A stretch of DNA of 64,000 nucleotides, from assembly GCA_021789935.1 (NCBI GenBank), contig JAJYIR010000007.1, forward strand, positions 11,050 to 75,049, read 5' to 3'. The first letter of the stretch is position 1. Each line of letters begins with the position of its first letter. The translations under genes and the position numbers were made by a program. This document shows positions 36,010 to 54,459 of this stretch, piece by piece. The notes below the pieces were generated by a model. That model did not search any database. It worked only from the letters and a program-made list of their open reading frames with translations, and was not told the origin of the DNA. Source of the DNA: Nitrospirota bacterium (GTDB lineage Bacteria; Nitrospirota; Thermodesulfovibrionia; Thermodesulfovibrionales; JdFR-88).

Positions 36010-36903
36010 TTACTTTTCTGTTTTTATTGTTTCTGTTTTTGTTTTTGCCTGAGACAAAGATAAAGAACCTATAAAATCCTTAAGCGCGTCCTCCCATTCC
36101 CTGGGCCTTATGCCTCTCACGCTTTCAAGCGGGGACCAAAGGGGCCTTCTCGCTTTTGTCTTATAAGCGGTATGGGGGACGGGGGTGATATCGGCCTTAA
36201 GGCCTGCCATCGCCGCTATCTTCACCGCAAACTCATACCAGCTGCAAACCCCTCCGTTAGAGGCGTGATAGAGGCCGAAGGGCCGCTCCTCGGTTATGAG
36301 CCGCCAAATCTCTTTTGCCGCGTCGGCGGCGTTTGTGGGCGACATGTGTATGTCGTCCACTATTGTCATGGGTTCGCCATTTCCGGCCTTATTGAGTATG
36401 GTGTAGACGAAGTTTCCGCCCTTGCCGCTTGCCCCCGCCCTGCCGTACAAGCCTGCCAAGCGCACTATGTAATGGCTGCCCGTAAAATTTTCCGCATAAA
36501 GCTCCCCGGCGTACTTCGATATCCCGTAGGTGCTTAGGGGATTGGGAGTATCGTCTTCGTTGTAGGGGGAGGGTTTTTTGCTTCCGTCGAATACGTAATC
36601 CGTGCTGATGTGCACAAGGACGGCCCCGGTTTTCCTGGCCGCCAAGGCAAGGTTTTTAACCCCCAGGGCGTTCACCCTGAAGGCCGCCTCCGCGTCGTCC
36701 TCCGCATCGTCCACCCTCACGTAGGCTGCAGTGTTTATTATCACATCCGGGTGCAGCCCGGTTAAAAAGGTTTTTGTTTCCTCCGGGCGGGTGATATCCA
36801 GCGTCTCCCTGGCAAGCGGGACCAGCTCAACTTCTCCGGGTTTGGCGGCCACTATCTCCGTGCCCAACTGTCCCCCCGGGCCGATAAGGGCAACCTTCAG
36901 CAT
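36010..36903 (-). CDS. rfbD: dTDP-4-dehydrorhamnose reductase
   Basis: GPGGQLG Rossmann motif, TDYVFDG, YGISKYAGE (YxxxK). Located in an operon with rfbABC. Confidence 0.92.
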   Translation of the reverse strand: MLKVALIGPGGQLGTEIVAAKPGEVELVPLARETLDITRPEETKTFLTGLHPDVIINTAAYVRVDDAEDDAEAAFRVNALGVKNLALAARKTGAVLVHISTDYVFDGSKKPSPYNEDDTPNPLSTYGISKYAGELYAENFTGSHYIVRLAGLYGRAGASGKGGNFVYTILNKAGNGEPMTIVDDIHMSPTNAADAAKEIWRLITEERPFGLYHASNGGVCSWYEFAVKIAAMAGLKADITPVPHTAYKTKARRPLWSPLESVRGIRPREWEDALKDFIGSLSLSQAKTKTETIKTEK

Positions 36904-37943
36904 CAGGAGAAGCTACTAAAACCTTTTCTGGTCTTCATCTCTTCAAAACGCCCCCTGAGCTGTTCCGTAAAGGCCTTTGCCTCCGCCTCCTTTTTAAAAA
37001 GCCAGTCACTCATCTGGCGGTACCATTGCACGGTGCGCTCGATCCCCTCTTCAAAACGGACGCGCGGTTTCCAGCCGGTCTCCTTCTCTATCTTGCAGGT
37101 GTCCACGGCGTACCTGAAATCATGCCCGGGCCTGTCCGCAACAAAGGTTATAAGCTCCTCTCCCTTGCCGAGAAGCCGGAGGATGGCAGATATCACGTCC
37201 CTGTTCATCTTCTCTTCGTTGCTGCCGATGTTGTAGGTTTCCCCCTGTCTTCCCGCCTCCAGGACGCTCATGACTGCCTCTGCGCAGTCCTCCACGAAAA
37301 GCCAGGTCCTTATGTTCTCTCCCTTCCCGTACATCGGGATTTTTTCGCCCCGGAGGGCTTTCGCTATCACCAGAGGGATCAGCTTTTCCGGGTACTGCCA
37401 GGGGCCGTAGTTGTTCGAGGGTCTGATGGTGGTTACCGGAAGCCCGTAGGTCTTCCGGAAGGCCCGCACGAACATGTCGGCAGAGGCCTTGCTTGCGGAA
37501 TAAGGGGAGTTTGGAAGCAGGCAGCCTGTCTCCCGGAACTTTTCCTCCCCGGCTGAAAGCTCCCCGTATACCTCATCCGTGGATATGTGTATGAACTTTT
37601 CAATCCTGTGCTCAAGCGCCAGCTCCAGCAGGTTTTCCGTGCCTATGACGTTTGCCCTTATGAAAGATGCGGGGTCAAGTATGCTTCTGTCCACATGGGT
37701 CTCGGCGGCAAAATGGACGATGGCCTGCGGTTTTTCGGCGCTGAATATCTCAGCAAGGCGAGTCTTGTCCGCGATGTCCGCCTGGTGGAAAGTTATTTTT
37801 TCATTGATCTGCTCCAGCCTCTCCAGGTCCCCGGCATAACTCAGGGCGTCTATGCAGACAGGGTTAAAAGCTCCCTTACGGACGGCAAGGCGGGTAAAGG
37901 CGCTCCCTATGAACCCGGCCGCGCCAGTCACTATCACCTTCAT
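36903..37943 (-). CDS. rfbB: dTDP-glucose 4,6-dehydratase
   Basis: VTGAAGFIGS, HISTDEVYG, PYSASKASADM, and DRPGHDFRYAVD. Confidence 0.95.
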   Translation of the reverse strand: MKVIVTGAAGFIGSAFTRLAVRKGAFNPVCIDALSYAGDLERLEQINEKITFHQADIADKTRLAEIFSAEKPQAIVHFAAETHVDRSILDPASFIRANVIGTENLLELALEHRIEKFIHISTDEVYGELSAGEEKFRETGCLLPNSPYSASKASADMFVRAFRKTYGLPVTTIRPSNNYGPWQYPEKLIPLVIAKALRGEKIPMYGKGENIRTWLFVEDCAEAVMSVLEAGRQGETYNIGSNEEKMNRDVISAILRLLGKGEELITFVADRPGHDFRYAVDTCKIEKETGWKPRVRFEEGIERTVQWYRQMSDWLFKKEAEAKAFTEQLRGRFEEMKTRKGFSSFS

Positions 37944-37965
37944 AGAATTTCTCCCACTATTGTCT

Positions 37966-38538
37966 TCACCGGGCTTTTCCCCCTCCGTAGATGAAATTGT
38001 TCCGGGCCTCTTTCAAAGAGGGCAGATGAGCGTCTTTGTCCGAGACAACCGGGTTTTCCAAAGGCCATTTTACTGAAATGTCCGGATCGTTCCAGATTAT
38101 GCCCCCATCGTGCTCGGGGGAGTACTCATCCGTGGCGGAATAAAGGACGTCCGTGTCATCTTCGAGGGTGGCAAACCCGTGGGCGAAACCGGGAGGGACC
38201 CATAGCATGAACATATTGCCGCCGGAAAGCTCAGCGCCCACCCATTTGCCGAAATAAGGCGAACCCTTCCTGATGTCGACGGCCACGTCGAATATCGCTC
38301 CCCTGGACACCCTTACAAGCTTCCCCTGCGCCCTGGGGTCCAACTGGTAATGCAGTCCCCTTAAAATTCCCCTCCTGCTCCTTGAGTGGTTGGCCTGGGT
38401 TAAATCCAGGTCTATGCCCGCGTTCAGGAACTCCGAGCGCTTGTAGGTCTCAAGAAAAAACCCCCGTTCGTCTCCGAATACGCGTGGCTGTATCAGGACA
38501 ACATCGGGAATGTCCAGTTTTTTAAAGGTAAACGGCAT
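37966..38538 (-). CDS. rfbC: dTDP-4-dehydrorhamnose 3,5-epimerase
   Basis: FGDERGFF, RGLHYQ, QGKLVRVSRGAIFDVAVDIR, and PPGFAHGF. ATG 38538 was chosen as the start. Confidence 0.95.
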   Translation of the reverse strand: MPFTFKKLDIPDVVLIQPRVFGDERGFFLETYKRSEFLNAGIDLDLTQANHSRSRRGILRGLHYQLDPRAQGKLVRVSRGAIFDVAVDIRKGSPYFGKWVGAELSGGNMFMLWVPPGFAHGFATLEDDTDVLYSATDEYSPEHDGGIIWNDPDISVKWPLENPVVSDKDAHLPSLKEARNNFIYGGGKAR

Positions 38539-38653
38539 GAAAGGCCCCGTCTTTTCCACATTTCATGCGTTGATTATACCCGAATTTTATTTAAAAAAAT
38601 ATTGTGGCTCTCATGTTTTCAAAGAGGTTTTTAATTCAGGAGGGGGAGGGGGG

Positions 38654-39559
38654 TCAGGCCATCAGGCCCTTTTGCGCGGCCTCATCACCTTTTGCCGCCT
38701 TGATGAGGTATTTCCCGTACTCGGTTTTTTTAAGGGTATCGGCCATTTCAAGCAGGGCCTCTTTCGTTATCCAGCCTTTGGAGAAGGCGATCTCCTCTAT
38801 GCAGCCCACCATGTAGCCGGTCCTGGTCTCTATGGTGGCTATGAACTTGCTTGCCTCAAGGAAAGAGTCATGGGTGCCGGCGTCAAACCAGGCAAAACCC
38901 CTGCCGATAGGGCTCACATGAAGAGAGCCCTTTTGCAGATATTCCTCGTTTACGCTCGTTATCTCAAGTTCGCCGCGCGCGGAGGGTTTTACCCCCTGCG
39001 CTATTGCGGAACAATTTTTATCGAAGAAATAAAGGCCGGTCACGGCCCAGTTGGATTTCGGTTTTTTGGGCTTCTCCTCAACCGAGATGGCCACCCCTTT
39101 TGAATCGAACTCCACTATGCCGTATCTTTCCGGGTCCTGCACGTTGGAGGCGAACACATAGGCCCCGCCCTCTTTTTTCATCCCGCGCACGGTCTCTTTC
39201 AGAAGGGCGGGTAGTCCGTGGCCAAAGAAGATGTTGTCGCCGAGTATCAGGCAGACATCCTGCCCCTTAATGAACTCTTTTCCTATAAGAAGGGCCTCGG
39301 CAAGGCCGTTTGGCTTTTCCTGGACTGCATAGGAGAACTTCAGGCCCAGGCGCTCTCCTGTGCCGAATATGCCTTTAAAACTCTCTATGTCCCTTGGGCC
39401 GGTTATAAGGAGAATGTCCTTTATGCCCGCAAGCATCAGGATGGAGAGGGGGTAGTAGATCATGGGCTTGTTGTAGACGGGAAGCAGGTGCTTGTTCAGG
39501 CATATCGTGGCGGGGTAAAGCCTTGTCGCGCTGCCCCCCGCAAGTATTATCCCCTTCAT
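38654..39559 (-). CDS. rfbA: Glucose-1-phosphate thymidylyltransferase
   Basis: [32 protein letters not shown], and LGDNIFFG. Confidence 0.96.
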
Positions 39560-39709: not shown

Positions 39710-41284
39710 ATGCCCAAAGGGCTTACCCCTCATCTTAAAACCGCCGTAAAGGGCAGCACGCTTGTCCTCGCCTCTGCCATTGGGAGCAACCTGCTCTGGT
39801 TTTTCATAAAGGTCCTCATAGTAAGGAACACCACCACTGCCGAGTTCGGCATTTACACACTGGTGCTAACAGTCGTAAGCATTCTTACCGCGGTTGCTCC
39901 CCTGGGTATACCGTCAGGGGTTACCAGGTTCGTCTCCATTTACCAGGGGGAGGGTAAAGTGGAAGAGGCGGACGGCATGTCAAGGGCGGGCGTGCAGATG
40001 ATGCTGGTGCTGGGGCTTGCGGCCTTCGTTTTTTTATATTTCCTGGCCGGCCCCATAGCTAGGGACTTTTTTTACACGCCCGGGCTTGCGGGACCCCTCA
40101 GGACAGTTTCTGTCGTGGTCCCCATCATGTTATATGCGAGTGCCGTGGCCAGTGTGCTGATCGGCCGTGGCCTGATCGGGCAAAAGTTTTTGGGCGACCT
40201 TCTGAGCCCTGTCTTATATGCGGGCCTGCTGGGTGCGGCAATTTTTCTTCAGATGCGCCTCACGGGCATACTGCATGCGTATGTAATTTCCAGCATACTG
40301 GTATATGGGCTTGTGGCGGCCTACGGGTTCTGGAAGCTGGGGGGCGCGCCGCTTTTGCCTAAACGCGGGCAGAGGCACTGGGAGCTTCTGAAGTTCTCCA
40401 CCCCGCTGACGATCTCGACTATAACGTCCCTGGTCCTCGTGTGGGCGGACACGCTTATGATAGGCAGGTACATAAACGCGCAGGCTGTGGGCACCTACGG
40501 GGTAAGCGTTTCCATGGTAAAGCTTCTCCTTTTCCCTCTTTCCGCGCTTAGTTTTGTCTTTCTGCCCATAGCGGGAGAGATATTTGCCAAAAAGCAGATG
40601 GGGGAGCTCCACAGGACTTACCAGGTGCTCACCAAGTGGGTCTTTGCTGCCACCCTGCCAATATTCTTCGTCCTCTTTTTTTTCCCGCAGATGAGCATAA
40701 CCGCCCTTTTCGGGTCGCGCTTCCCGGAAGCCGCACTGCCCCTCAGGCTCCTGGCCCTGGGCTTCATGATGCACACCTTCTTCGGCACAAACGGGATGCT
40801 CTTAGTGGTGATGGGCTTTCCGAAAACTATCATGAAGATATCCGTGGCGGCGGCGGCAGTGAACATTGCCCTGAACTATATCTTTTTAAAAAGCATGGGC
40901 ATGGGGATTGCCGGGGGGGCGCTGGCGACTATGATCTCCTATATCCTTATCAATATCATGTATTCGGTAAAGCTTTACCAGCACAGCCGGATGCACCCCT
41001 TTTCGGCCTCCTATCTTAAACCCGTTGCCGGGGCCGCAATATCGGGGCTTCTCATATACGTTGTCGCAAAGAGCCTGCCTCTTTCCCTCTGGATGCTTCC
41101 GGTCTACTTCGTGCTTTTTACCGCGGGCTATGTAGCGAGCCTCCTTCTGTCAAGGAGCATCGAGGAGGAGGACCTTTTTCTTCTGGAGCGGGTGCTTAAC
41201 AGGCTGGGAGCCAGGCCTGCGCCTGTATTGGCGTTTCTGGAGCGGTTCGCGCCAAAAATTGCAAAACCCGGCGTCGATGTGTGA
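39710..41284 (+). CDS. Wzx-type oligosaccharide flippase (MOP/polysaccharide biosynthesis protein family)
   Basis: A 524-aa polytopic protein (about 12-14 TM segments) with the typical N-terminal KGSTLVLASAIGSNLLWF. Glycan cluster context. Confidence 0.8.
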   Translation: MPKGLTPHLKTAVKGSTLVLASAIGSNLLWFFIKVLIVRNTTTAEFGIYTLVLTVVSILTAVAPLGIPSGVTRFVSIYQGEGKVEEADGMSRAGVQMMLVLGLAAFVFLYFLAGPIARDFFYTPGLAGPLRTVSVVVPIMLYASAVASVLIGRGLIGQKFLGDLLSPVLYAGLLGAAIFLQMRLTGILHAYVISSILVYGLVAAYGFWKLGGAPLLPKRGQRHWELLKFSTPLTISTITSLVLVWADTLMIGRYINAQAVGTYGVSVSMVKLLLFPLSALSFVFLPIAGEIFAKKQMGELHRTYQVLTKWVFAATLPIFFVLFFFPQMSITALFGSRFPEAALPLRLLALGFMMHTFFGTNGMLLVVMGFPKTIMKISVAAAAVNIALNYIFLKSMGMGIAGGALATMISYILINIMYSVKLYQHSRMHPFSASYLKPVAGAAISGLLIYVVAKSLPLSLWMLPVYFVLFTAGYVASLLLSRSIEEEDLFLLERVLNRLGARPAPVLAFLERFAPKIAKPGVDV

Positions 41285-41344: not shown

Positions 41345-42016
41345 ATGATCAAAAATTATAAAGACAACCGGCTCTATAAATTCCTGTTGAAATGGCGGAT
41401 TAAGTACGAGCAGTTAAAGACCATTAAGGAATGGGGGAAAAATGGCAGACCCGTTCCGCCGCCGCACATTATAAAACAAAGGAACCTCATCCGCTATGCG
41501 GAAAAATATCAGTTGAAAATATTAGTTGAAACTGGAACTTATCGTGGCGATATGATCGAAGCCATGAAAGGCCATTTTGCCCATATTTATTCCATTGAAT
41601 TAGAAAAAGTTCTCTATGACAGGGCCAGGGAACGCTTTAAAAAGGAGAGCCATATAGAATTGATCCATGGTGACAGCGGAAGAGAACTCGGGAAGGTGAT
41701 AAACAAATTAAATCATCCCGCTCTGTTTTGGCTTGACGGCCACTACTCGGGCGGGGAGACAGCCATGGGAGAGAAAGAGACACCTATCTACGAGGAATTG
41801 CGCCACGTCCTTGCCGATTGCAGAAGCTATGTAATCATAATTGACGACGCTCGTCTCTTTGGAAGTGACCCCGCTTATCCGTCTTTGCCGGAACTTGAAG
41901 GTTTCATCAGGGCGATGAGACCGGAAATGAAAATATCTGTCGCTGACGACTCCATAAGGGTAGAACCTAACGGTCTTGCCGGTCCGGCAAGACCGGAGTA
42001 TATTCAAAAATTGTGA
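41345..42016 (+). CDS. Putative SAM-dependent methyltransferase-fold protein
   Basis: The motif-I-like KILVETGTYRGD, then IYSIE and LFWLDGHYSGGET. The family is recognised only loosely. AT-rich gene. Confidence 0.5.
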   Translation: MIKNYKDNRLYKFLLKWRIKYEQLKTIKEWGKNGRPVPPPHIIKQRNLIRYAEKYQLKILVETGTYRGDMIEAMKGHFAHIYSIELEKVLYDRARERFKKESHIELIHGDSGRELGKVINKLNHPALFWLDGHYSGGETAMGEKETPIYEELRHVLADCRSYVIIIDDARLFGSDPAYPSLPELEGFIRAMRPEMKISVADDSIRVEPNGLAGPARPEYIQKL

Positions 42017-42048
42017 ACCAGATCTAATTTTCCCGAAAGTTCAAGGTG

Positions 42049-42834
42049 ATGGACACTATGAATTTTGTTAGAAGGCTGGCAAATAAGTTGTCTGCTTTTC
42101 TTGGCTGGATTGAAATAAGGCCCCGGCGCACTTTTACAGCCCTCGCCGCGTTTAAACACTACCTGACCGATCTTAACGAATTTTCATCAAGAACAAACTG
42201 GAAGGTTTTAAAATATCCTTGCTTGTTTGATCTCAACCAGGAAGCCGGTTCTTGCGGCGAGTATTTTTTTCAGGATATTTATGTTGCAAAACGCATAATC
42301 GAACAAAACCCCGGGCGCCACATAGATGTGGGGTCGCGTGTGGATGGATTTATCGCGCACCTTGCGTGTGTTCGAAGGGTTGAGGTTTTGGATATCCGTC
42401 CCATGATTTCAACGGTTAATGAAATAGATTTTCACCAAGCCGATATAACGGGTATAAGCGCCGATTGGTTTGATGCGGCCGACTGCCTGAGCTGCCTTCA
42501 TGCTCTTGAACATTTTGGGCTTAACAGGTACGGGGACGGCATAGATCCGGATGGATGGAAGGCCGGTTTTCAAAATTTGCAAAAAATTTTAAAAAAAGGC
42601 GGGGTTTTGTGGCTGTCGGTCCCGGTTGGTAAGCAGCGGGTGGAGTTTAATGCGCACCGTGTATTTGACCCGCAGACAATTTATAACTTCGCTTCAGGTT
42701 TGGGACTGGCCCTGCAAGAGTTTGCTTATCTGGATAAAGGCAAAATCACTGTATCGTCCGACCATGAAAATGATTTCCGCCGCCTGGCCAATGCAAATTA
42801 CAATTTGGGTATTTTTAAATTTACCAAAGGGTAG
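42049..42834 (+). CDS. DUF268-like SAM-dependent methyltransferase-fold protein
   Basis: HIDVGSRVDGFIAHLA..., LSCLHALEHFGLNRYGDGIDPDGW, and VLWLSVPVG. Confidence 0.6.
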   Translation: MDTMNFVRRLANKLSAFLGWIEIRPRRTFTALAAFKHYLTDLNEFSSRTNWKVLKYPCLFDLNQEAGSCGEYFFQDIYVAKRIIEQNPGRHIDVGSRVDGFIAHLACVRRVEVLDIRPMISTVNEIDFHQADITGISADWFDAADCLSCLHALEHFGLNRYGDGIDPDGWKAGFQNLQKILKKGGVLWLSVPVGKQRVEFNAHRVFDPQTIYNFASGLGLALQEFAYLDKGKITVSSDHENDFRRLANANYNLGIFKFTKG

Positions 42835-42849
42835 ATTTATATAATTTCC

Positions 42850-43710
42850 ATGATAATTTTTTTCGAGAGCGGACGGCTGGGCAATCAACTTTTTCAGTAT
42901 TGCGCCCTTAAGAGATTCCAGAAAAAGGGCGCCATTTTTCTTGTCGGGATGCGGTCTTTAAAAGACACGTTCCAAGGTATCGAGGTTGCGGGCGGCACAA
43001 GGCTGGCATACGGCATAGAACGGATCGTTCGCCGGCTGGGGACCGGGCCGTTTGACACACTCGCAAGAAAATTGCGGTTGATCGGCTATATTAAAGAGCA
43101 CAGAACGCCGAATGGCTCCGAATTCAGGATAAATAATGGACTCCTTAAAAATATCCATTATTGCGGCGTATCATATTTCCATGCGGAAAACATGGTTGAT
43201 CATTCTATTGCCTCGAAACTGGAGCTGAAAACGGAGTTGCTGGAATATGCATCGAAAATCTTCAAAAAATTCCCCCGCGACAGGACAGAAACCTTTTTCG
43301 TTCATGTGCGAAGGGGTGATTACACGCATTGGCCCTCCCCTGACGCGCCCGCAGTTTTGCCGTTAAGGTGGTATCGGCAGCAAATGGAGACGATCAGGTC
43401 CAGATGTGTAAAACCGTTTTTCCTGGTAGTTTCGGATGACGGCCCTTATGCCGCCGAGATGTTCGGCAACAACCCGGACGTATTCGTATCCCACGAAAGC
43501 GAAGCTGTTGATTTGGCCCTGATGTCCTTGTGCAGCGGCGGTGGGGTCCTTTCCGCCAGTTCTTTTTCCTGGTGGGCCGCCTATTTTGCTCGCAGGGCAA
43601 ACAACGATGCGTTTTTCATAGCGCCATTGTATTGGATAGGGCACCCATCGGGGAGCTGGTTCCCGGAGGGCATCGAAACAAGCTGGTTGAATTATGCAGC
43701 TGTCGAGTGA
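42850..43710 (+). CDS. Alpha-1,2-fucosyltransferase (glycosyltransferase family 11)
   Basis: GRLGNQLFQY at the N-terminus and the HVRRGDY motif. The GDP-fucose genes gmd and fcl are in the same cluster. Confidence 0.82.
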   Translation: MIIFFESGRLGNQLFQYCALKRFQKKGAIFLVGMRSLKDTFQGIEVAGGTRLAYGIERIVRRLGTGPFDTLARKLRLIGYIKEHRTPNGSEFRINNGLLKNIHYCGVSYFHAENMVDHSIASKLELKTELLEYASKIFKKFPRDRTETFFVHVRRGDYTHWPSPDAPAVLPLRWYRQQMETIRSRCVKPFFLVVSDDGPYAAEMFGNNPDVFVSHESEAVDLALMSLCSGGGVLSASSFSWWAAYFARRANNDAFFIAPLYWIGHPSGSWFPEGIETSWLNYAAVE

Positions 43711-43808: not shown

Positions 43809-44591
43809 TTACGTTTTTTTCCGGCAAAAGAAAACCTTTCGATAATTCGTAGCCAACGGATGTTTTGAAAGCCTTGGCGGAAACAGCACATGTTTGCTTC
43901 TTATGTCCCGGGTAAAATCGGACTCGTTGACGGCAGTCACGGAAAAGCCTTTTCTTTCGACAATTTCTGAAAAATCATCCCCAAATATCCTCAGATGATC
44001 GTACTGCCCGAAATGCTTTGTCCTGTCTTCAGGCGTAATAATAGCCGGATCCTCATAGGTCACCGGAAGACTGTCTTTCTGCGGCACAGTAAAGATCGCA
44101 ACACCCTCTGGAGATAAAATCCTGCGAATTTCATCGAGGGCCTTTTGGTAGTCCGGCACATGCTCAAGTACATCGAAAGCAATTGCGATATTAAAGCTTT
44201 CATTTTTTACGGACGGCATATCGGACATATCCAGCTTGAGGTCGCAGTCTTGCCGGAAATAATCGGCCGTTACATAGTGTGCGGCCTTTTTCCGAATATT
44301 TGAACTGACTATATCTTCCGGTGCGAAATGCAGGATATTCCTGCCATGGATAAGCCTGTCAAAGGACAGGCCCTCAATGTTCTGCAGGGCCGCAAAAAAT
44401 AACCTTTGCCGTATGCCGGAACCGCACCCCGGGCAGTTTACCTGGTAGTGCCATGTATCACTTGTAAAGTGGCGCCCTTTCCACCCGCAAATATTACACT
44501 GGACATTCCTGGGAAAAGACAGGAAAACCAGCCTGGAGCCATCGATTATTTTCCATGCGAAACGCCGCGCGGTCTTGCCTGGCAAAGACAA
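43809..44591 (-). CDS. Class I SAM-dependent methyltransferase with N-terminal Cys4 zinc-ribbon
   Basis: CNICGW...CPGCGS, then ILHFAPE, and FDVLEHVPDYQKALDEIRRILSPEGVAIFTVP. Confidence 0.75.
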   Translation of the reverse strand: MSLPGKTARRFAWKIIDGSRLVFLSFPRNVQCNICGWKGRHFTSDTWHYQVNCPGCGSGIRQRLFFAALQNIEGLSFDRLIHGRNILHFAPEDIVSSNIRKKAAHYVTADYFRQDCDLKLDMSDMPSVKNESFNIAIAFDVLEHVPDYQKALDEIRRILSPEGVAIFTVPQKDSLPVTYEDPAIITPEDRTKHFGQYDHLRIFGDDFSEIVERKGFSVTAVNESDFTRDIRSKHVLFPPRLSKHPLATNYRKVFFCRKKT

Positions 44592-44826: not shown

Positions 44827-45642
44827 TCACGGCAGGATCAGCAGACGCGCCGAGGGACCGCGGAGCCGGCCGGGCAACCCTTCAATCACCGGGAAAAAGA
44901 ACTTCGATCGCCGCTCTATTTTACGGGCTGCGGCCGCTGAAACCGGCCCAACCTTTTCATAGGCCCGGCCATAAGCCACTTTTTCCCCTGGCAGCAGATT
45001 CATGGCCCGCATTGCTTTGTCCCACGACCATCGGAAGTGAAATGTAGATGGCAGATGGCAGCGGATGACGGGCCAAAAGCAATTGGCAATCACAAATTGG
45101 CCACCCACGCGTAAATGCCTGGCTGCATGTTCCGCCAGCAAAAGCGGATCTAAAACGTGCTCAAACACATCTGTGGCCACCAAAATATCATATTCCCCAG
45201 TGAACTCTGGGATGAAGCGTACATTCTTAGTTTTTGCGGTTAGTGAGACAGCCATATTATGAGGGTGGGGCTCTACGATATGCACTTCGGTCTCAGGACA
45301 GCATTCACCTATCATTCGTGACAGTGTACCGTAGCCCCCGCCGAAATCGGCAATGCGGCGAGGTTTACTCCGGGCGACATATGCGCTGAACTCCTGCCGG
45401 TTTTTCAGGGATTCGGTATGCTGTTCTATAAATAGGCCATTTAGCAGCCACACAGGATGTGAATAAAATTTGTTAATGCGCTCATCCACAATTTCCGGAT
45501 CACAACCGCATTCAATCCAGGCCTCATCCATCAAGGCCCACATGCGCTTTAGATCCGGAGCTTCCCGGTTATCCAGCACCCTTTCGAAATACGACCGCTC
45601 TGCGATGGAAAGATCACAGCTTATATTCATAAAAAATATCAT
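44827..45642 (-). CDS. Class I SAM-dependent methyltransferase
   Basis: IADFGGGYGTLS (motif I) and ATDVFEHVLDPLLLAEHAARHLRVGGQFVI. ATG 45630 is an alternative start. Confidence 0.72.
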   Translation of the reverse strand: MIFFMNISCDLSIAERSYFERVLDNREAPDLKRMWALMDEAWIECGCDPEIVDERINKFYSHPVWLLNGLFIEQHTESLKNRQEFSAYVARSKPRRIADFGGGYGTLSRMIGECCPETEVHIVEPHPHNMAVSLTAKTKNVRFIPEFTGEYDILVATDVFEHVLDPLLLAEHAARHLRVGGQFVIANCFWPVIRCHLPSTFHFRWSWDKAMRAMNLLPGEKVAYGRAYEKVGPVSAAAARKIERRSKFFFPVIEGLPGRLRGPSARLLILP

Positions 45643-45740: not shown

Positions 45741-46556
45741 TCAGAACTCCTTCGGGACGCCAGGATAGAAGATTCTCCTGTAAAGCTTTGCGATGAAGCT
45801 AAAACCTGTCTTTCTCAGGAAAAGCCCGGCTTTTTGCTCAAAAGGGATGAAAGATATCCTGTACAGATAGCCTCCGTAAACGCCTAACCTGTTATAGCCA
45901 TAATGCAGAGCGAGCCGCTTTTTTTCTCTCACACATTCATTTTGCTGCCGGTAGCTGAGCCCCCCCAGCCTCATTGCCGCAATAACGCGGTTGATATAAT
46001 GGAACTTCACTCCGTTTTTGATGTACCTCAGAAAAAGGTCATGGTCCATGGCAATGCGGTATGAGAGGTCAAAGACTCCGTGCCTGTCATAGATGGCCTT
46101 TCTCACAAACACTGTGGAGTGCAACACCGGTATCTCCCAGGCGGAGCTCGCGGGATTTTTTGGCGGGCTCACTATATAGGACGCTCCACCATCCACGTTC
46201 AGCATCCTGAGGTCGCCGTGCACCACGCCGATCCCGGGGGCCTCCGCAAAAGCCTTTACGGCGGCACTTATGGCCCCCGGCTCATAATAATCGTCGGAAT
46301 GTATTATGCCAACTATCTCTCCTGAAGCCATCCGGATGCCCTTGTTCATGGCATCGGCAATGCCCTTGTCCGGTTCTGATACCCACTTGGCTATTTTTTT
46401 TTCGTATTTTTTGATTATATCCAGGGTGCCATCGGTTGAGCCGCCGTCCACAATGATATATTCAATGTCCGGATAGTCCTGGCCAATTACGCTCTGGATT
46501 GTCTGCTCCAGATGTTTTTCGCTGTTGAAGGTAATGGTTATTATGGAGACGAGCAT
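45741..46556 (-). CDS. Glycosyltransferase family 2
   Basis: VSIITITFNSEKHLEQTIQSVIGQDYPDIEYIIVDGGSTDGT and HSDDYY (the DxD region). Confidence 0.9.
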   Translation of the reverse strand: MLVSIITITFNSEKHLEQTIQSVIGQDYPDIEYIIVDGGSTDGTLDIIKKYEKKIAKWVSEPDKGIADAMNKGIRMASGEIVGIIHSDDYYEPGAISAAVKAFAEAPGIGVVHGDLRMLNVDGGASYIVSPPKNPASSAWEIPVLHSTVFVRKAIYDRHGVFDLSYRIAMDHDLFLRYIKNGVKFHYINRVIAAMRLGGLSYRQQNECVREKKRLALHYGYNRLGVYGGYLYRISFIPFEQKAGLFLRKTGFSFIAKLYRRIFYPGVPKEF

Positions 46557-46562
46557 TGAATA

Positions 46563-47849
46563 TTATACTTTACGGTTTGGGCGATCACTCGTGATCGATT
46601 CGTATAACGTAAGGTAGCTCTTAGCCAGCACATCCATGGAGTAATCCTCAAGGGCTTTTTCCCTGGCGGCCTCTCCGAGGGCCTGCCTGCGCCGCTCGTC
46701 TTCGAGGACCCACTTTATGCCTTGGGCGAGGTCTTCGGAGTCCATATATTTTGCCAGAAAGCCGTTTTTCATGTGTTCCACCATATCGGGAACTCCGCCT
46801 ACGTCAAAGGCCGCCACGGGGGTGCCGCAGGCCATGGACTCCATTATCGTATTGGGCAGGTTATCCCCAAGGCTGGGGAGAACGAAAACGTCCGCACAAC
46901 TGTAAAGGACAGACATGGAAACCTCGTCCGAAAGGGCCCCGGCAAATACGGTTTCGAATGGAAACCTTTCGTTTCCTTTCGAATGGCCGGCCCCGAAAAT
47001 CAAAAGCATATAATCCTTTTGGCCTGAAGCAATTTCCTTTAAACGATTGATTGCCTCAAACAGGTAACGGAAACCTTTTCTCTTGTCGCTTGTGCCCCCG
47101 GCCGCTCCGAAGAGAATTATTTTTTTATCTTCTGGAAAATTGAAAACAGACCTCGCGGTGTTCTTTTCGGCGGGCTTGAACACGCCGGTATCCAAGCCGT
47201 TCGGGATGATTTGCACGGGGCGCCCTGATAAAAGCGCGCTGTCCTTAACGCGGTTGCCCAGCCAGCCCGACGGGGTAACTATGTGAAGATTTAAATCCGC
47301 ATACGCCCTTTTTTTCCGTCTGAAAACCTTTGCGGAAAGGTCTCCGGCTCTGGAGGAGCCGAGCTGCGGGCAGGCGCCGCATGCCGCCTTGTACTTCCCG
47401 CACTCACCGGCATAGTGGCAGCCACCAGTGAAGGCCCACATGTCATGAAGGGTCCAGACCACCGGCTTGCCTAGCTTGGCGAGGGAGGCGATATTGCCTA
47501 TGGACATGAAGCCGCCAGTGGTCCAGTGCAGATTGATGATGTCCGAGTTTTTCAACAGCGGGAAATTCATGCGCCTTCGAGCCCATGCCGGATGAAAAAG
47601 CGGTTCCTTGCGGGCATAGAACTTCAGGGGCAGTCTGTCCAGGTGGCCGGAATTTCTCGCTGCAAACATTCCTTTAAGGCTCTCTGGCCCGTGCACAGAG
47701 GGATCATCGCACGTCTTCATGTCCACGACCATCGCCGATTGTGCTCCGGCCTTGTTTAGCGCCATATGCAGGCGGAAAGCCGCTATTGCGGCCCCGCCCA
47801 GCTTGTCATATTTACTAAGGTGAGTTATATTCATGACCTGTTCCGGCAT
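46563..47849 (-). CDS. Glycosyltransferase family 4 (GT-B, GT1/GT4 type)
   Basis: C-terminal motif VLPSLGDNLPNTIMESMACGTPVAAFDVGGVPDMV (EX7E-type). ATG 47834 is an alternative start. Confidence 0.85.
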   Translation of the reverse strand: MPEQVMNITHLSKYDKLGGAAIAAFRLHMALNKAGAQSAMVVDMKTCDDPSVHGPESLKGMFAARNSGHLDRLPLKFYARKEPLFHPAWARRRMNFPLLKNSDIINLHWTTGGFMSIGNIASLAKLGKPVVWTLHDMWAFTGGCHYAGECGKYKAACGACPQLGSSRAGDLSAKVFRRKKRAYADLNLHIVTPSGWLGNRVKDSALLSGRPVQIIPNGLDTGVFKPAEKNTARSVFNFPEDKKIILFGAAGGTSDKRKGFRYLFEAINRLKEIASGQKDYMLLIFGAGHSKGNERFPFETVFAGALSDEVSMSVLYSCADVFVLPSLGDNLPNTIMESMACGTPVAAFDVGGVPDMVEHMKNGFLAKYMDSEDLAQGIKWVLEDERRRQALGEAAREKALEDYSMDVLAKSYLTLYESITSDRPNRKV

Positions 47850-47901: not shown

Positions 47902-48834
47902 TCATTTAATCCCGATTTTAACCAGGAAATTATACAAAATGCCTTTTAACTCCGAGGTAAATGTAGTATTTGGAAAAAGGTTTCTTTCAGTAAAAGTGTC
48001 AGCCTCTGAATCTCGCAGCAGAAAAGGCGGATGAATCAGCGGGAATTCCATGGGTTCGGTTTTCATGGCGGAAAATATGTTTTCCCCCTTCGTGTTAGTC
48101 GCGTATTCACCGAACCCAATATTGGATACTAGGTTTACGTTCGGCAAAATGGTTAAAGCCCCGTGCTGCCAGCAAGTAAAAGTCCACCTGTAATCCCAAT
48201 GGTTTCTTTTCCCTGTGTATATATCATTAAAAATTCCTGACCAATAACGGACTGCGCGCTTATCATCGAGGAAATCATGCAACCATCCGCCATCCCTGAT
48301 TTCCGGCCATGCTTTCATGCCTGCATCATAATTTTTCCAGGCGCGCCTCCATGTAGCCCAGCCCCATATATGGGTGTACCTGGAAAAATAATAACTGTAC
48401 GCGGTCCTTTTTCTGCCGAACCGGAAATTATCCCCGCTGAGCATGGCAACGCGCTCATCATCCCTGTATCGTTCCAGCAGTTCCTCACAGAAGCGGAAGA
48501 AGGTGGGGTGGGGGAAGCAGTCGTCCTCAAGAATGATTGCCTCTTCTACTTGATTAAAAACCCAGTCCAGCCCGCTTGGGAACCGGCGCGGGCCGCCTAT
48601 ATTCACGTCGGAAAAATTGGTCAGCACCTCGCAGTCCCAATCTACCCGGGTGATTATCGCACGTGCGGCGGCGCAGGCTTGGGCCTCACCCGGCTTGTCT
48701 TCCCTGGGGCCGTCGGCCACTACAAACAGCTTTGGAGGTTTTGCCTTAGCTATTTCAAGAAAGACCTTTTCGGTCGTATCAGGCCGCTTGAAAATAAAAA
48801 AGGCTACCGGGGTTTTGAGCTTCCAGTCACTCAT
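47902..48834 (-). CDS. GT-A fold glycosyltransferase (GT2-like, HlpA-like family)
   Basis: VAFFIFKRPDTTEKVF...LFVVADGPR...AIILEDDCFPHPTFF resembles sequences annotated as GT2-like / hemolytic protein HlpA-like. This is from memory. Confidence 0.6.
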   Translation of the reverse strand: MSDWKLKTPVAFFIFKRPDTTEKVFLEIAKAKPPKLFVVADGPREDKPGEAQACAAARAIITRVDWDCEVLTNFSDVNIGGPRRFPSGLDWVFNQVEEAIILEDDCFPHPTFFRFCEELLERYRDDERVAMLSGDNFRFGRKRTAYSYYFSRYTHIWGWATWRRAWKNYDAGMKAWPEIRDGGWLHDFLDDKRAVRYWSGIFNDIYTGKRNHWDYRWTFTCWQHGALTILPNVNLVSNIGFGEYATNTKGENIFSAMKTEPMEFPLIHPPFLLRDSEADTFTERNLFPNTTFTSELKGILYNFLVKIGIK

Positions 48835-48981: not shown

Positions 48982-49677
48982 TTATGGTTTAATCCCTCCT
49001 ATCGGGGAAATAGCATCAGAAAGCCTTTTGAACTTAAAATCCTTGAAAAACAGAGAGGTGCATAATGTATACGCGTTTATGGGACTGAAACCGCAAAAAT
49101 CCACCTGGTTAAAACCAGCCTCTCTCAACATCCTGCAAGACTCGGCGTTCCAGTCCGAATTGTCAAGGATGATCAGACTATTTTCTTTAAGGAATCCTGG
49201 GGCCAGCCTTGCACAATTTTCTCTGCCATAGCCCATATATCCGTCGATTACTATTACATCAAACTTTTTGCCCTGGTTAGAAATAGCATTTGTATATTCT
49301 TTGTCTTCAGCAAGAATGAGCTTCGAATTTGCCGGTTTGTTTTTACTTATCTTCTCAAACCATTCGCGGTTATGTTCCACGCTTGTAACATCCTTGCTTC
49401 TACCCGCCCAGAAAAGTGTCGAATTTCCCGACCCCCACTCAAAAACAGTCTTATCTGAATAATCGAATTGCTTGATATACTCAATGGCGGGATATGTATA
49501 CCAAGGTACCGGATTGCCGGCTTCATCAATTGAGGAATTTTTTCTTACGCTATTATATTGGCCGTAGTTTCTAGCCAGTATCTCAAAATTTCGCCACTGC
49601 ACCCCATAGCGCTTCGGAACGATTCCCCAAAAAATTGTCCATAACTGGTTTTTCACTGTATTAAATTTCTTGTTCAT
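48982..49677 (-). CDS. Hypothetical protein with Rossmann/methyltransferase-like motif
   Basis: VFEWGSGNSTLFW (motif-I-like) and VIVIDG. A strongly AT-rich gene (about 33% GC in hand-counted lines). Confidence 0.4.
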   Translation of the reverse strand: MNKKFNTVKNQLWTIFWGIVPKRYGVQWRNFEILARNYGQYNSVRKNSSIDEAGNPVPWYTYPAIEYIKQFDYSDKTVFEWGSGNSTLFWAGRSKDVTSVEHNREWFEKISKNKPANSKLILAEDKEYTNAISNQGKKFDVIVIDGYMGYGRENCARLAPGFLKENSLIILDNSDWNAESCRMLREAGFNQVDFCGFSPINAYTLCTSLFFKDFKFKRLSDAISPIGGIKP

Positions 49678-49770: not shown

Positions 49771-50955
49771 TCATATCTCCAGTTTTATTTCCGCGCACCA
49801 CTTGGACCTGCACTTTATCTTTGACACGTCGCAGCGGTCCTTGTACTTCTTTGCGATGTCCATAACCTCTTCCATCAGGCCCGCGCTCAGCGTTATGGGG
49901 GACAGGCCGAGTTTTAAAAACTCCTCATTGGAAACCCTCAGCTCGTTTTCGGGGGCCTCGCGCCTCGGATTGGGAAGGTAATCGATCCCCGCACCCGTCA
50001 TCTTGGATACCGTTTCCGCAAGCCATTTTACCGTATGGGTTTCCGTGGCCTGGTTGAATATTTTTACTTTTTTGCCTTTGTCCGGCGGGTTCTCGATGGC
50101 CAGCCTTATGCATCTTACGGTATCGCGGATGTGTATGAAGGCCCTCGTCTGCCCGCCCTTGCCGTGGACAGTGAGGGGGTGCCCTATGGCGGCCTGCATC
50201 AGGAAGCGGTTAAGCACGGTGCCGTAGTCCCCGTCGTAGTCGAACCTGTTTATCAGCCTTTCATCCAGGAGAGTTTCTTCCGTATTGGTGCCCCAGACGA
50301 TGCCCTGGTGAAGGTCCGTTATCCTCAGCTTGTCGTTCTTGTTGTAATAATAGAACATGAGGGCGTCCATGGTTTTTGTCATGTGGTAGACGCTGCCCGG
50401 GTCTGCCGGGTAGAGGATCTCAATGTCCTTGTTTGTGCCGTCCACGTCCACATTGACCTTCAGATACCCTTCCGGTATCTTCATGCCGGCAGTGCCGTAC
50501 CCGTACACGCCCATCGTGCCCAGGTGCACCATATGGATGTCCAGCCCGGACTCCACTATGGCGCAAAGTATGTTGTGCGTGGCATTTGTGTTGTTGTTCA
50601 CCGTGTACCGCTTGTGAAAGGCGGTTTTCATCGAATAAGGCGCGGCCCTCTGCTCCGCGAAATGCACGACCGCCCTCGGCTTTACTTCCTCCAGGAGCTT
50701 CAGAAGCCTGAAGTAATTAAGCGATACATCAAAATTATGGAATTTGATCACGTTGCCGGTGTTTTCCCCCCAGACCTCGAGGCGGGTCCCCATCGGCCGG
50801 ATGGGGGTGAGGGAAAAAGCCTCCAGCTCGTTGTCGATATTTCTGCGGCTCAGGTTGTCGACTATCGTCACATCATAGCCGTGTTTCGATAAGAACAGCG
50901 CGGTGGGCCATCCGCAGAACCCGTCCCCGCCGAATATGATGATGCTCTTGTTCAA
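49771..50955 (-). CDS. sqdB: UDP-sulfoquinovose synthase homolog (SQD1/SqdB/Agl3-type extended SDR)
   Basis: Colinear with plant SQD1 as I recall it. Here versus SQD1: GGDGFCGWPTALFLSKHGY vs GGDGYCGWATALHLSKKNY; VHFAEQRAAPYSM vs VHFGEQRSAPYSM; LGTMGVYG vs LGTMGEYG; SVYHMTK vs SFYHLSK; LNRFLMQAAIGHPLTVHGKGGQTRAFIHIRDTV vs [33 protein letters not shown]. Confidence 0.85.
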   Translation of the reverse strand: MNKSIIIFGGDGFCGWPTALFLSKHGYDVTIVDNLSRRNIDNELEAFSLTPIRPMGTRLEVWGENTGNVIKFHNFDVSLNYFRLLKLLEEVKPRAVVHFAEQRAAPYSMKTAFHKRYTVNNNTNATHNILCAIVESGLDIHMVHLGTMGVYGYGTAGMKIPEGYLKVNVDVDGTNKDIEILYPADPGSVYHMTKTMDALMFYYYNKNDKLRITDLHQGIVWGTNTEETLLDERLINRFDYDGDYGTVLNRFLMQAAIGHPLTVHGKGGQTRAFIHIRDTVRCIRLAIENPPDKGKKVKIFNQATETHTVKWLAETVSKMTGAGIDYLPNPRREAPENELRVSNEEFLKLGLSPITLSAGLMEEVMDIAKKYKDRCDVSKIKCRSKWCAEIKLEI

Positions 50956-51050
50956 GACATTCTCCTGATTATGCTTTCAATCAGCAAAGCAAGCTTTTTC
51001 AACTCCTTATATTAACAAAATAATGAGTGAAATTTCATGTTCAGGACACT

Positions 51051-51312
51051 AAGTGTCCTGTCCCGTAAATAGCTTTACATAACAGCTTTCACGTAAGGTT
51101 TAGAAACTTGGGCATCTCTAAGGTCGTCATGCCCGGGTGTCTTAATCGGGCATCCATTTTGACGTGTTTAACAATTGGATTCCCGCCTGCGCGGGAATGA
51201 CGGTCCTGTCGCTTGCGTATGTCGCTCTATGCAATTGGATTCCCGCCTGCGCGGGAATGACGGCCCAAAACATTCCCGATCCAAATGTAAAGAACCGTTA
51301 GGGACAGGACAC
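51051..51312 (+). mobile_element. MITE-like hairpin-rich repeat, copy C (with extra 60-bp internal module)
   Basis: Same orientation as copy A and near-identical to it. Ends GTGTCCTGTCCC (51053-51064) and GGGACAGGACAC (51301-51312) form a perfect 12-bp TIR. It lies between the sqdB homolog and a GT2 gene. Confidence 0.72.
51172..51263 (+). repeat. Two identical 32-bp palindrome-containing repeats separated by a 28-bp unique spacer
   Basis: CAATTGGATTCCCGCCTGCGCGGGAATGACGG occurs at 51172-51203 and 51232-51263. The spacer is TCCTGTCGCTTGCGTATGTCGCTCTATG. Copy A has a single unit. Confidence 0.85.
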
Positions 51313-51435
51313 CAGTCTGGCACCCTGCAAGCAAGACAAAAAACCGGCCGGGGTGCCGCAGCTTGAATTTGCCCGCCGCGATGCTGTTTTTTTCGCCTTC
51401 CGGTAATGATAAGCAAAGGATAGTTATAATAGAAA

Positions 51436-52230
51436 ATGAGCGTTAAACCGCTGGTTTCAATAATCAGCATCACCTATAACAGCGAAAAATTTTTGAGAGG
51501 CACCATCGAAAGCGTCCTGGGGCAGGACTATCCGCGAATCGAATACATCATTATAGACGGGGGCTCAAAAGACAGTACCCTTAAGATTGTCGAAGAGTAC
51601 AAGGGCAGGATAGCTAAAATCATTTCGGAGCCCGACAGGGGCATATCCGACGCCATGAACAAGGGCATAAGGCTCAGCACGGGAGAAATTATAGGCATCA
51701 TACATTCCGATGATTATTATGCCGGCAGCTCCGTGGTAAGCAGGGTGGTTAAGGCCTTCGAGGGCTCCCCGGATGTAAAAGTCACTTACGGCATCCAGGA
51801 TTTCGTGGCCCCGGACACGGGGGCCGTCCTGCTTAGCTGGGGAAGAGGCTCGGAGCCGGCAGAGATCAGGAAGAGGATGTATCTCCCCCACCCTACCGTC
51901 TTTTGCAGAAGAGAAGTCTATGAAAAGGCCGGGCTCTTCAGGGAGGACTACAGATACGCGATGGATTACGAATGGGCGATGAGGGTTACAAGATTTACAA
52001 GGCCCTATTTTATAAATCATAAACTTGCCGTAATGAGGGACATGGGGTCGAGCGGTAAAAATTACCGGATAGCGCTGTCCGAGGGGGCCCGCGCGCTGAG
52101 GGAAAACGGATACTATTTTGATTACTTGCTGACCCTCGGCAGAAACCTGGTAAAAATCGTGATGATAGAACTCGGTTTGAAGGACCTGCTTTATAAGCTC
52201 TGGGCCAAAAACGTCTCCAAGCCCTCTTAG
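51436..52230 (+). CDS. Glycosyltransferase family 2 (paralog of 45741-46556)
   Basis: VSIISITYNSEKFLRGTIESVLGQDYPRIEYIIIDGGSKDST...GIIHSDDYY. Confidence 0.9.
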   Translation: MSVKPLVSIISITYNSEKFLRGTIESVLGQDYPRIEYIIIDGGSKDSTLKIVEEYKGRIAKIISEPDRGISDAMNKGIRLSTGEIIGIIHSDDYYAGSSVVSRVVKAFEGSPDVKVTYGIQDFVAPDTGAVLLSWGRGSEPAEIRKRMYLPHPTVFCRREVYEKAGLFREDYRYAMDYEWAMRVTRFTRPYFINHKLAVMRDMGSSGKNYRIALSEGARALRENGYYFDYLLTLGRNLVKIVMIELGLKDLLYKLWAKNVSKPS

Positions 52231-52337: not shown

Positions 52338-53423
52338 ATGAAAACGGCTCTTATCACAGGAATAACTGGCCAGGACGGGGCGTATCTGGCCGATTTCCTT
52401 CTTGATAAAGGTTACCTGGTGCATGGCGTCAAGCGCAGGTCGTCTTTGTTCAATACGGGCAGGATAGACCACCTTTACCAGGACCCGCACGAGAAAGACG
52501 TCCGGTTCAAGCTCCACTATGGAGACCTTACCGATGCGGCGAACCTTATCCGGATAGTGCAGGAGACCCAGCCCGACGAGATATACAATCTGGCGGCCCA
52601 GAGCCATGTACAAGTCTCCTTTGAGACCCCGGAGTATACCGCCAACGCGGACGGGCTCGGCACCCTGCGGCTCCTAGAGGCCATGAAGGTGCTGGGGCTT
52701 GGCAATAAGACGCGGTTTTACCAGGCATCCACCTCCGAGCTTTACGGGAAGGTCCGGGAAACGCCGCAGACTGAAAACACCCCCTTCTACCCCCGAAGCC
52801 CATACGCGGTGGCGAAGCTTTATTCCTACTGGATCACGGTGAATTACCGGGAGGCCTTCGGCTACTTCGCCTGTAACGGGATACTTTTTAATCACGAATC
52901 CCCTGTGAGGGGCGAGACGTTTGTCACAAGGAAGATAACGCGGGCAGTGGCCCGGATAAAGCTGGGACTGCAGAAGAAATTATATCTTGGCAATCTCAAC
53001 TCAAAAAGAGATTGGGGACACGCCAAAGATTATGTCCGGGCGCAATGGCTTATAGTGCAGCAGGAGGTACCGGAAGATTTTGTCATTGCCACCGGACAAC
53101 AGCACTCGATCCGGGAGTTCGTAACGGAAGCGTTTCAGCAGGTGGGAATCGGGCTGGAATGGAAAGGGACGGGGCTTGACGAAAAAGGGACCGCCTCTGA
53201 AACCGGCGAGGTCCTGGTTGAAGTGGACAAAAGATACTTCCGTCCTACCGAAGTGGAGACGCTCCTTGGGGACGCAACCAAGGCAAGGGAGAAACTGGGC
53301 TGGACCCCAACGGTTACTTTCAGGGAGCTTGTTGCCGAGATGGTGAGGGAAGACCTCAAGGAAGCCGAACGCGATCAATTGTGCGAAAAAAACGGTTTCA
53401 AGACCATGAAGTATTTCGAGTAA
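52338..53423 (+). CDS. gmd: GDP-mannose 4,6-dehydratase
   Basis: [48 protein letters not shown], and NHESPVRG. Confidence 0.97.
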
Positions 53424-54367: not shown

Positions 54368-54459
54368 TTTGCTTCTCCCCGTGATTTTAAGGATTCCCGC
54401 ATGCGTGCAGGCGTTTTCCCTTTGTGAAAATAAAAATATCAAAATGGGCGGCATATAAG

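Follow-up and report, generated by a model that had tools for sequence, protein, structure and literature searches.

A SqdB-type UDP-sulfoquinovose synthase homologue in a Wzx-type surface-polysaccharide locus of a Nitrospirota bacterium, with a predicted role in glycan sugar supply

The 64,000-nt stretch of Nitrospirota DNA analysed here (GenBank assembly GCA_021789935.1, contig JAJYIR010000007.1, positions 11,050 to 75,049; hereafter the window) carried, within a surface-polysaccharide locus, a gene encoding a homologue of SqdB-type uridine diphosphate (UDP)-sulfoquinovose synthases. This sqdB-like gene (49771..50955, minus strand; 394 aa, TTG start) was the first of a minus-strand operon. 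Taking protein and gene context together, the enzyme would make UDP-sulfoquinovose (UDP-SQ) and the UDP-SQ would feed a surface glycan, a joint reading given a probability of about 0.62. Taken separately, synthesis of UDP-SQ by the enzyme is very probable, and delivery to a glycan is likely once UDP-SQ is made. The initial annotation, which had proposed sulfoquinovose (SQ) as a building block of a surface glycan, was in this respect supported as a genomic inference, the contexts of the relatives being consistently polysaccharide clusters. By analogy with Agl3 in archaeal N-glycosylation, the locus predicts a previously unreported arrangement, in which a bacterial Wzx-type glycan cluster is supplied with UDP-SQ. 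The window sequence was identical to NCBI assembly GCA_027414815.1.

The TTG start codon was preceded by a Shine-Dalgarno sequence (AGGAGA) at a spacing of 5 nt, and the length of 394 aa was that of the closest homologues. An antisense open reading frame (ORF) inside the gene (50035-50892, plus strand, 285 aa), which recurred at the loci of relatives, is an artefact of opposite-strand codon usage and no gene. All the motifs that had been quoted as SQD1-like (GGDGFCGWPTAL, VHFAEQRAAPYSM, LGTMGVYG, SVYHMTK and LNRFLMQAAIGHPLTVHGKGGQTRAFIHIRDTV) were present in the protein. Its homology to SQD1 is full-length and far beyond chance: residues 3-386 matched the Arabidopsis enzyme (PDB 1qrr) with E = 1.1e-93 in phmmer, the next family reaching E = 4e-12, and global identity to Arabidopsis SQD1 was 44%. 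The top NCBIfam model was NF041015 (UDP-sulfoquinovose synthase) with 332.5 bits, compared with 35-50 bits for GalE and RmlB models. The NAD-binding GxxGxxG motif was found as GGDGFCG (residues 9-15), and T147, Y190 and K194 aligned to the catalytic triad of SQD1 (Thr145, Tyr182 and Lys186), described together with the UDP-SQ synthase fingerprint [ST]MG...Yx3K (PMC8987622). The SQD1 positions H96, R101, T145, M146, G147, Y182, H183, K186 and Q209 were all kept, and the resulting signature HRTMGYHKQ was the same in the window protein, SQD1, Sinorhizobium meliloti SqdB and Loktanella SqdB, while the outgroups RmlB and GMD differed. The AlphaFold2 (AF2) model (predicted local distance difference test 83.6, predicted template modelling score 0.87) had SQD1 structures as its top three Foldseek matches in the PDB (1i24, 1i2b and 1qrr; template modelling score (TM) 0.89-0.90, E~4e-39), the remaining sugar short-chain dehydrogenases/reductases (SDRs) being found at TM ~0.64 and E ~1e-18 or weaker. 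The protein is a member of the SQD1/SqdB/Agl3 family of extended SDRs with catalytic and fingerprint residues intact, and thus a new member within a known family.

An exhaustive homologue search returned 498 clusters (50% identity level) at E ≤ 1e-30. A neighbour-joining tree with 100 bootstraps was built from full-length representatives and anchors, the latter comprising SQD1, cyanobacterial and acidobacterial SqdB with adjacent SqdX, alphaproteobacterial SqdB from sqdBDC operons, and one member each from a haloarchaeon and an Agrobacterium plasmid. The window protein grouped tightly with sequences from Nitrospirota and Desulfobacterota (support 100%), in a clade that was sister to alphaproteobacterial SqdB (bootstrap 77; identity 59-61%, with 61% to S. 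meliloti SqdB) and separate from the SQD1/cyanobacterial clade (identity 44-47%). On these comparisons the nearest characterised relative appears to be SqdB of the alphaproteobacterial (Rhodobacter/Sinorhizobium) type rather than plant SQD1, so that the likeness to plant SQD1 claimed in the initial annotation stood for full-length homology and conserved residues but not for closest kinship. The alphaproteobacterial enzymes also shared TMGVYG, PGSVYHMTK, TDLHQGIVWG and GGQTRAFI with the window protein, and the reaction is presumed to be the same (UDP-glucose + sulfite to UDP-SQ). In Rhodobacter sphaeroides, deletion of sqdB leads to loss of the sulfolipid sulfoquinovosyl diacylglycerol (SQDG; PMC11346425). 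In the alphaproteobacterial pathway, sqdB is followed by sqdD (encoding a family 8 glycosyltransferase, GT8) and sqdC, which together with SqdA lead to SQDG via sulfoquinovosyl glycerol, and expression of S. meliloti sqdBDC in Escherichia coli yields sulfoquinovosyl glycerol (bioRxiv 10.1101/2022.08.18.504050).

The sqdB-like gene lay in a Wzx-type cluster spanning 36-55.3 kb of the window, comprising wzx, a GT11, three GT2s, a GT4, a GT-A, rmlABCD and gmd/fcl, with a GC content of 0.47-0.515, lower than the 0.53-0.55 of its flanks. The setting first described, among GT2, GT4 and GT11 glycosyltransferases, a Wzx flippase and the rhamnose and fucose pathways, was confirmed with Pfam and NCBIfam. 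Homologues at 72-98% identity were found in metagenome-assembled genomes (MAGs) of Nitrospiraceae, Ca. Sulfobium, Thermodesulfovibrionales, Deltaproteobacteria and Ca. Electrothrix. A 92%-identical ortholog (locus L001) had the same flanks as the window (histidine kinases, DUF202, rmlDBCA and wzx) and different interior glycosyltransferases, and sqdB was the sole interior gene common to both loci. As sqdB was retained while the glycosyltransferases were swapped, it behaves like a gene that supplies a nucleotide sugar to a variable surface-antigen locus. A polysaccharide cluster surrounded the gene in 10/10 genomic contexts, including five of Wzx/Wzy type with Wza, Wzc, CpsB and Bac_transf (L003, L088, L089, L095 and L096), in which Wzy, a chain-length regulator and an initiating transferase were found, and one of ATP-binding cassette (ABC) type with Wzm and Wzt (L090). 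A metagenome scan yielded 61 further sqdB-like loci (52-88% identity), and polysaccharide markers, searched with a small marker set, were present in 31 of the 37 among them that reached 6 kb or more. In relatives, sqdB was often co-oriented with wzx, wzy, wzc, wzt or glycosyltransferase genes.

The locus is one without SQDG-synthase context nearby, as the initial annotation had already read it. Since the nearest relative is of Rhodobacter/Sinorhizobium type, SqdD, SqdC and SqdA were lipid partners to check besides SqdX, and since SqdX and SQD2 are GT4 enzymes, the GT4 of the operon (46563..47849) needed an SqdX check of its own. A hidden Markov model (HMM) of SqdX was built from 29 of the ~40 cyanobacterial loci in species-representative genomes that carried a ~377-aa GT4 directly 3' of sqdB. 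Cyanobacterial SqdX scored 729-793 bits within the training set and 746-777 bits outside it, and acidobacterial GT4s adjacent to sqdB scored 563-570 bits. The operon GT4, the best-scoring ORF of the window, reached 62 bits, within the range of unrelated GT4s (34-106 bits); a 379-aa GT4 beside the 92%-identical ortholog reached 56 bits, and both were rejected as SqdX. The best score among the 61 metagenomic loci was 120 bits. With S. meliloti and Loktanella queries, neither the window nor six loci of relatives showed a homologue of SqdD or SqdC (tblastn/blastp; nothing beyond E~0.1 save generic SDR likeness), and the 61 metagenomic loci gave 0 matches. Two unannotated genes downstream of sqdB were likewise rejected as SqdD/SqdC, one having a GT-A fold and the other being weakly methyltransferase-like.

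These searches bear on the most serious alternative, namely that the gene serves a membrane sulfolipid, UDP-SQ being passed to diacylglycerol or another lipid by a distant SqdX-type enzyme or by the GT4 of the cluster, with the position among polysaccharide genes incidental. This is unlikely, yet it has precedent on its side: all characterised bacterial SqdB serve SQDG (PMC13436972, PMC11346425), and some cyanobacteria carry sqdB and sqdX at separate sites, so that linkage is not obligatory (PMC13436972). In addition, some GT4 enzymes glycosylate lipids, and that of the window weakly matched glycolipid synthase models. Set against this, SqdX, SqdD and SqdC were absent from the window, the 20-kb loci of nine relatives and the 61 metagenomic loci, and SqdD and SqdA have been reported solely from Alphaproteobacteria (bioRxiv 10.1101/2022.08.18.504050). 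The consistent embedding of sqdB among wzx, wzy, wzc, wzt and glycosyltransferase genes, and its retention beside rml in a syntenic variable locus with swapped glycosyltransferases, is the behaviour of a glycan supply gene.

A second alternative, improbable on present evidence, is that the chemistry has diverged, the enzyme stopping at UDP-glucose-5,6-ene, accepting another nucleotide sugar, or using a nucleophile other than sulfite (sulfide or a thiol) to give a different 6-modified sugar. Agl3 does release UDP-Glc-5,6-ene when sulfite is lacking (PMC4388408), and the NF041015 score of the window protein was below that of SQD1-type enzymes. The window protein also carried Val (TMGVY) where SQD1 has Glu148 and Agl3 has Glu147, the following Tyr being kept; Agl3 mutants at E147 and Y148 retain 12-15% activity, E147A keeping only 12% (PMC4388408). 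The same Val was present in the SqdB of the S. meliloti and Loktanella sqdBDC operons and in 33/74 sampled family members. Because alphaproteobacterial SqdB shares it, Glu after TMG appears not to be a family-wide requirement and Val is probably a lineage trait, and the substitution was not taken as a sign of lost function. When expressed in E. coli, the S. meliloti operon, whose SqdB has this Val, does give sulfoquinovosyl glycerol (bioRxiv 10.1101/2022.08.18.504050), and the other active-site motifs of the window protein were nearly identical to those of S. meliloti and Loktanella SqdB, at an overall identity of 59-61%. The score of 332.5 bits also lay under the NF041015 equivalog cutoff of 575 bits; validated SQD1 (484 bits), cyanobacterial SqdB with adjacent sqdX (467-475 bits) and acidobacterial SqdB (493 bits) all missed this cutoff too, so that it is narrower than the function and the failure is uninformative. 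An ordinary nucleoside diphosphate (NDP)-sugar epimerase/dehydratase of GalE/RmlB type with a superficial resemblance to SQD1, as suggested by Pfam matches to the generic Epimerase and GDP_Man_Dehyd families only and by the NCBI name of the relatives ('NAD-dependent epimerase/dehydratase family protein'), is already refuted by the profile, PDB and TM gaps given above and by TMG...YHxxK, RmlB having TDE and GMD having TSE at the TMG position.

Under the preferred reading, in which UDP-SQ supplies a surface glycan, a Nitrospirota host (Thermodesulfovibrionia / Ca. Sulfobium-like) would have recruited SqdB to provide a nucleotide sugar for a variable surface-polysaccharide locus. The enzyme, as an NAD+-dependent SDR, would oxidise UDP-glucose at C4 and eliminate water to give the 4-keto-5,6-ene; sulfite would then be added at C6 and C4 re-reduced to yield UDP-6-sulfoquinovose. 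Sulfite is plausibly plentiful in a dissimilatory sulfate reducer. A co-transcribed glycosyltransferase would move SQ onto a lipid-linked oligosaccharide that would also receive L-rhamnose and L-fucose and be O-methylated, after which Wzx would flip the unit, the Wzx-dependent product being an O-antigen, extracellular polysaccharide (EPS), capsule or glycan. The product, the SQ-using transferase, the acceptor and the final glycan class are inferred only.

Downstream of sqdB, the operon encoded two candidates for this transfer. The second gene (48982..49677, minus, 231 aa) probably encodes a protein with a class-I methyltransferase-like fold, based on weak signals (Pfam Methyltransf_24, E = 0.0035, below cutoff; PDB 3cvo 'methyltransferase-like protein', E = 0.1), and no homologue of it was found among the other nine genomic contexts. 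It is followed by an HlpA-like GT-A glycosyltransferase (47902..48834, minus, 310 aa) with a GT13/GT16-like fold and an EDD motif. This protein had no sequence match in Pfam, NCBIfam or the PDB, its homologues being named 'hemolytic protein HlpA-like / glycosyltransferase family 2' in databases; its AF2 model showed a GT-A fold, with Foldseek matches to POMGnT1, GnT-I and GnT-II (E 6e-11 to 6e-8). Next comes the GT4 (46563..47849, minus, 428 aa; Pfam Glycos_transf_1 and Glyco_transf_4), which has a Cys-rich N-terminal half. The GT-A/GT4 pair recurred with sqdB at four loci, L098 (75% and 71% identity, respectively), L109, L113 and L140; GT4 homologues near sqdB were also found at L129 and at L090, the latter without the GT-A and at 37% identity, and a GT-A homologue lay within about 100 bp of sqdB at L104, L113, L134 and L140. 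As a hypothesis, the GT-A and the GT4 are the best candidate sulfoquinovosyltransferases. We know of no bacterial glycan-directed SQ-transferase. The operon continued on the minus strand with a GT2 (45741..46556, 271 aa; Pfam PF00535, E = 2e-28) and two S-adenosylmethionine (SAM)-dependent methyltransferases (44827..45642, 271 aa, Methyltransf_23 and Methyltransf_12; 43809..44591, 260 aa, Methyltransf_23 and Methyltransf_11). A search of the operon for promoters and terminators gave counts that did not clearly exceed those of shuffled controls, and it revealed no convincing terminator between the genes.

A homologue of the GT-A with 68% identity was also present in an archaeal AglB/STT3 N-glycosylation cluster (Ca. 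Methanoperedens, GCA_030069165.1), and this unannotated HlpA-like family is common to bacterial polysaccharide and archaeal N-glycan loci at high identity.

Several observations weigh against UDP-SQ synthesis for a surface glycan. The enzyme clade is biochemically uncharacterised, its score is below the NF041015 equivalog cutoff as discussed above, and the deep nodes of the tree, made by neighbour-joining only and without Agl3, were weakly supported. The SqdX search on the source genome covered the 64-kb window only, so that an unlinked sqdX-type transferase may exist. Within that window no Wzy polymerase, chain-length regulator or initiating phosphoglycosyltransferase was recognised, so that the glycan may be either a polymer or a short oligosaccharide. 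A universal partner glycosyltransferase was rejected, as none was common to all 10 loci. Strict coupling of the HlpA-like GT-A to sqdB was rejected as well, since its Methanoperedens and Jettenia homologues had no SQD1-family gene within 8 kb; being found in loci without sqdB, this family is not SQ-specific. Finally, the literature search, with incomplete coverage, returned no report of SQ in a bacterial glycan, which is absence of evidence.

Among known systems, the alphaproteobacterial sqdBDC/sqdA system of R. sphaeroides and S. meliloti is the closest characterised lineage; the window locus differs from it in having polysaccharide neighbours, no SqdD/SqdC partners found and a non-phototrophic Nitrospirota host. 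The functional analogue is Agl3 of Sulfolobus acidocaldarius, which provides UDP-SQ for a lipid-linked glycan and whose gene lies among glycosylation genes (PMC4388408). The Agl3 residues His95, Arg101, Met145, Tyr182 and Lys186, whose Ala mutants are inactive (PMC4388408), were kept in the window protein, whereas Glu147 of Agl3 is Val in the window clade. Agl3 is archaeal and belongs to AglB-dependent protein N-glycosylation with a dolichol-linked carrier, unlike the bacterial Wzx-type window locus, and it would belong to another branch of the family, as judged solely from NF041015 scores (window protein, 332 bits). SQD1 of Arabidopsis and cyanobacterial SqdB share fold and catalytic residues with the window protein at 44-47% identity in a separate clade; they pair with the GT4 SQDG synthase SqdX/SQD2, encoded directly 3' in ~40 cyanobacterial loci, whereas none was found at the window locus. 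In genomic behaviour, sqdB resembles the rmlABCD and gmd/fcl-type supply genes of O-antigen and capsule loci, being conserved in a low-GC locus of variable glycosyltransferases between housekeeping flanks and moving among Wzx/Wzy- and ABC-type clusters. Unlike the sugars of those pathways, the sugar it provides would be a C-sulfonated hexose, and the literature searched describes no such sugar in any bacterial polysaccharide.

Sulfoquinovose is viewed as a compound that phototrophs make in the form of SQDG, the sole recognised exceptions being archaeal N-glycans and a handful of lipids in heterotrophs (PMC9594981, PMC13436972), and reviews of 2022 and 2026 give only SQDG and archaeal N-glycans as SQ products. 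The clade to which the window protein belongs was spread over Nitrospirota/Thermodesulfovibrionales, Desulfobacterota including cable bacteria, and many sediment metagenomes. The chances are about even that the whole SqdB-type clade (52-98% identity) has been recruited into surface-polysaccharide loci, making C-sulfonated sugars a regular component of O-antigens, EPS and capsules in anoxic sulfur-cycling habitats. These sugars would be SQ and possibly, where a ~307-aa SDR described below adjoins sqdB, an epimerised derivative, and they would often be O-sulfated too. If this clade does supply UDP-SQ to bacterial surface polysaccharides, it would define a new class of bacterial glycan and add a new permanently anionic, sulfatase-resistant sugar to bacterial envelopes and EPS. 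It would also constitute an unrecognised non-phototrophic source of SQ in dark anoxic sediments, the home of sulfoglycolytic and sulfonate-respiring organisms, and a direct link from the dissimilatory sulfite pool to cell-surface chemistry, with the GT13-like GT-A and the Cys-rich GT4 offered as candidate sulfoquinovosyltransferases.

The remainder of the cluster comprised supply, export and transfer genes on both strands. The dTDP (deoxythymidine diphosphate)-L-rhamnose pathway genes rmlD, rmlB, rmlC and rmlA (36010..39559, minus) were assigned by Pfam, with rmlB and rmlD passing NCBIfam equivalog cutoffs. They were followed on the plus strand by the Wzx-type flippase (39710..41284; Polysacc_synt/MATE, Pfam PF01943 and PF13440; 61% identity to the L001 wzx), two methyltransferase-like genes (41345..42834; one of 223 aa with weak signals and one of 262 aa with DUF268 / Methyltransf_23) and a GT11 of the fucosyltransferase family (42850..43710; Pfam PF01531, E = 3e-17). 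A divergent intergenic (promoter) region (50956..51435) separated the sqdB-like operon from a plus-strand operon encoding a GT2 (51436-52230) and the guanosine diphosphate (GDP)-L-fucose supply genes gmd (52338-53423; passing NCBIfam TIGR01472) and fcl (53432-54367; 493.8 bits against an NCBIfam cutoff of 500), with another GT2 at 54424-55335 (plus). An Rfam scan of 35-58 kb gave zero matches.

An exact 25-nt palindromic repeat, GTCATTCCCGCGCAGGCGGGAATCC, occurred three times on the minus strand (3272-3296, 51177-51201 and 51237-51261), with 0 copies expected from shuffles. Two of the copies lay 60 bp apart within the divergent promoter region between the sqdB-like and GT2-gmd-fcl operons. The repeat may be a repetitive extragenic palindromic (REP)-like element or an operator, and it also creates a spurious ORF (51168-51473).

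The sulfur-metabolism hints noted elsewhere in the window in the initial annotation proved to be real genes, but distant ones: they lay 23-28 kb from sqdB and were separated from it by parAB and two-component genes. All were on the minus strand. The TauE/SafE gene (25983-26780) overlapped an AIRS/SelD-like gene (26777-27748), just 5' of which lay an ArsR-family regulator (27909-28250), and the three together resemble a small operon for sulfur, selenium or anion export that has no relation to the glycan cluster. The DsrC-like domain was confined to the C-terminal 100 residues of a 240-aa ORF (21976-22698) whose N-terminal 130 residues were without assignment, so that either the true start lies further downstream or the ORF is a fusion. 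Being distant and unlinked, these genes add little on the glycan locus.

Among the sqdB loci of relatives, genes for sulfotransferases of the 3'-phosphoadenosine-5'-phosphosulfate (PAPS) type were present at L003, L005, L089, L090, L095 and L150, and at L095 an adenosine-5'-phosphosulfate (APS) kinase gene (9339-10004) overlapped the start of the sqdB-like gene. The glycans of such clusters may be both C-sulfonated and O-sulfated. A conserved GalE/RmlB-like SDR of ~307 aa, not present in the window, was encoded by the immediate neighbour of sqdB in at least 13 loci (L089, 11371-12294; also L098, L099, L105, L109, L110, L111, L119, L129, L138, L144, L145, L147 and L154), with 41-65% identity, no NCBIfam equivalog and without the dehydratase D-E pair. 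This SDR could modify UDP-SQ, 4-epimerisation being one possibility.

A divergent SQD1-family gene (406 aa, signature HRSIGYHKQ, ~40% identity) was found on a plasmid of Agrobacterium sp. S7/73 (NZ_CP072139.1; L093, 6001-7221), and genes of this type were also carried by plasmids of Rhizobium and A. tumefaciens, all cultured bacteria. Its plasmid neighbours, four glycosyltransferases and three methyltransferases, form another non-lipid, glycan-type context. Many Acidobacteriota MAGs, at 30 loci, possessed a SQD1-type sqdB whose identity to plant SQD1 (67-71%) is on a par with that of cyanobacterial SqdB. At two of these loci (L078 and L080), an SqdX-like GT4 gene lay directly 3' of sqdB, with the 563-570 bits on the cyanobacterial SqdX HMM given above, which suggests, from sequence and gene order, that soil Acidobacteria synthesise SQDG.

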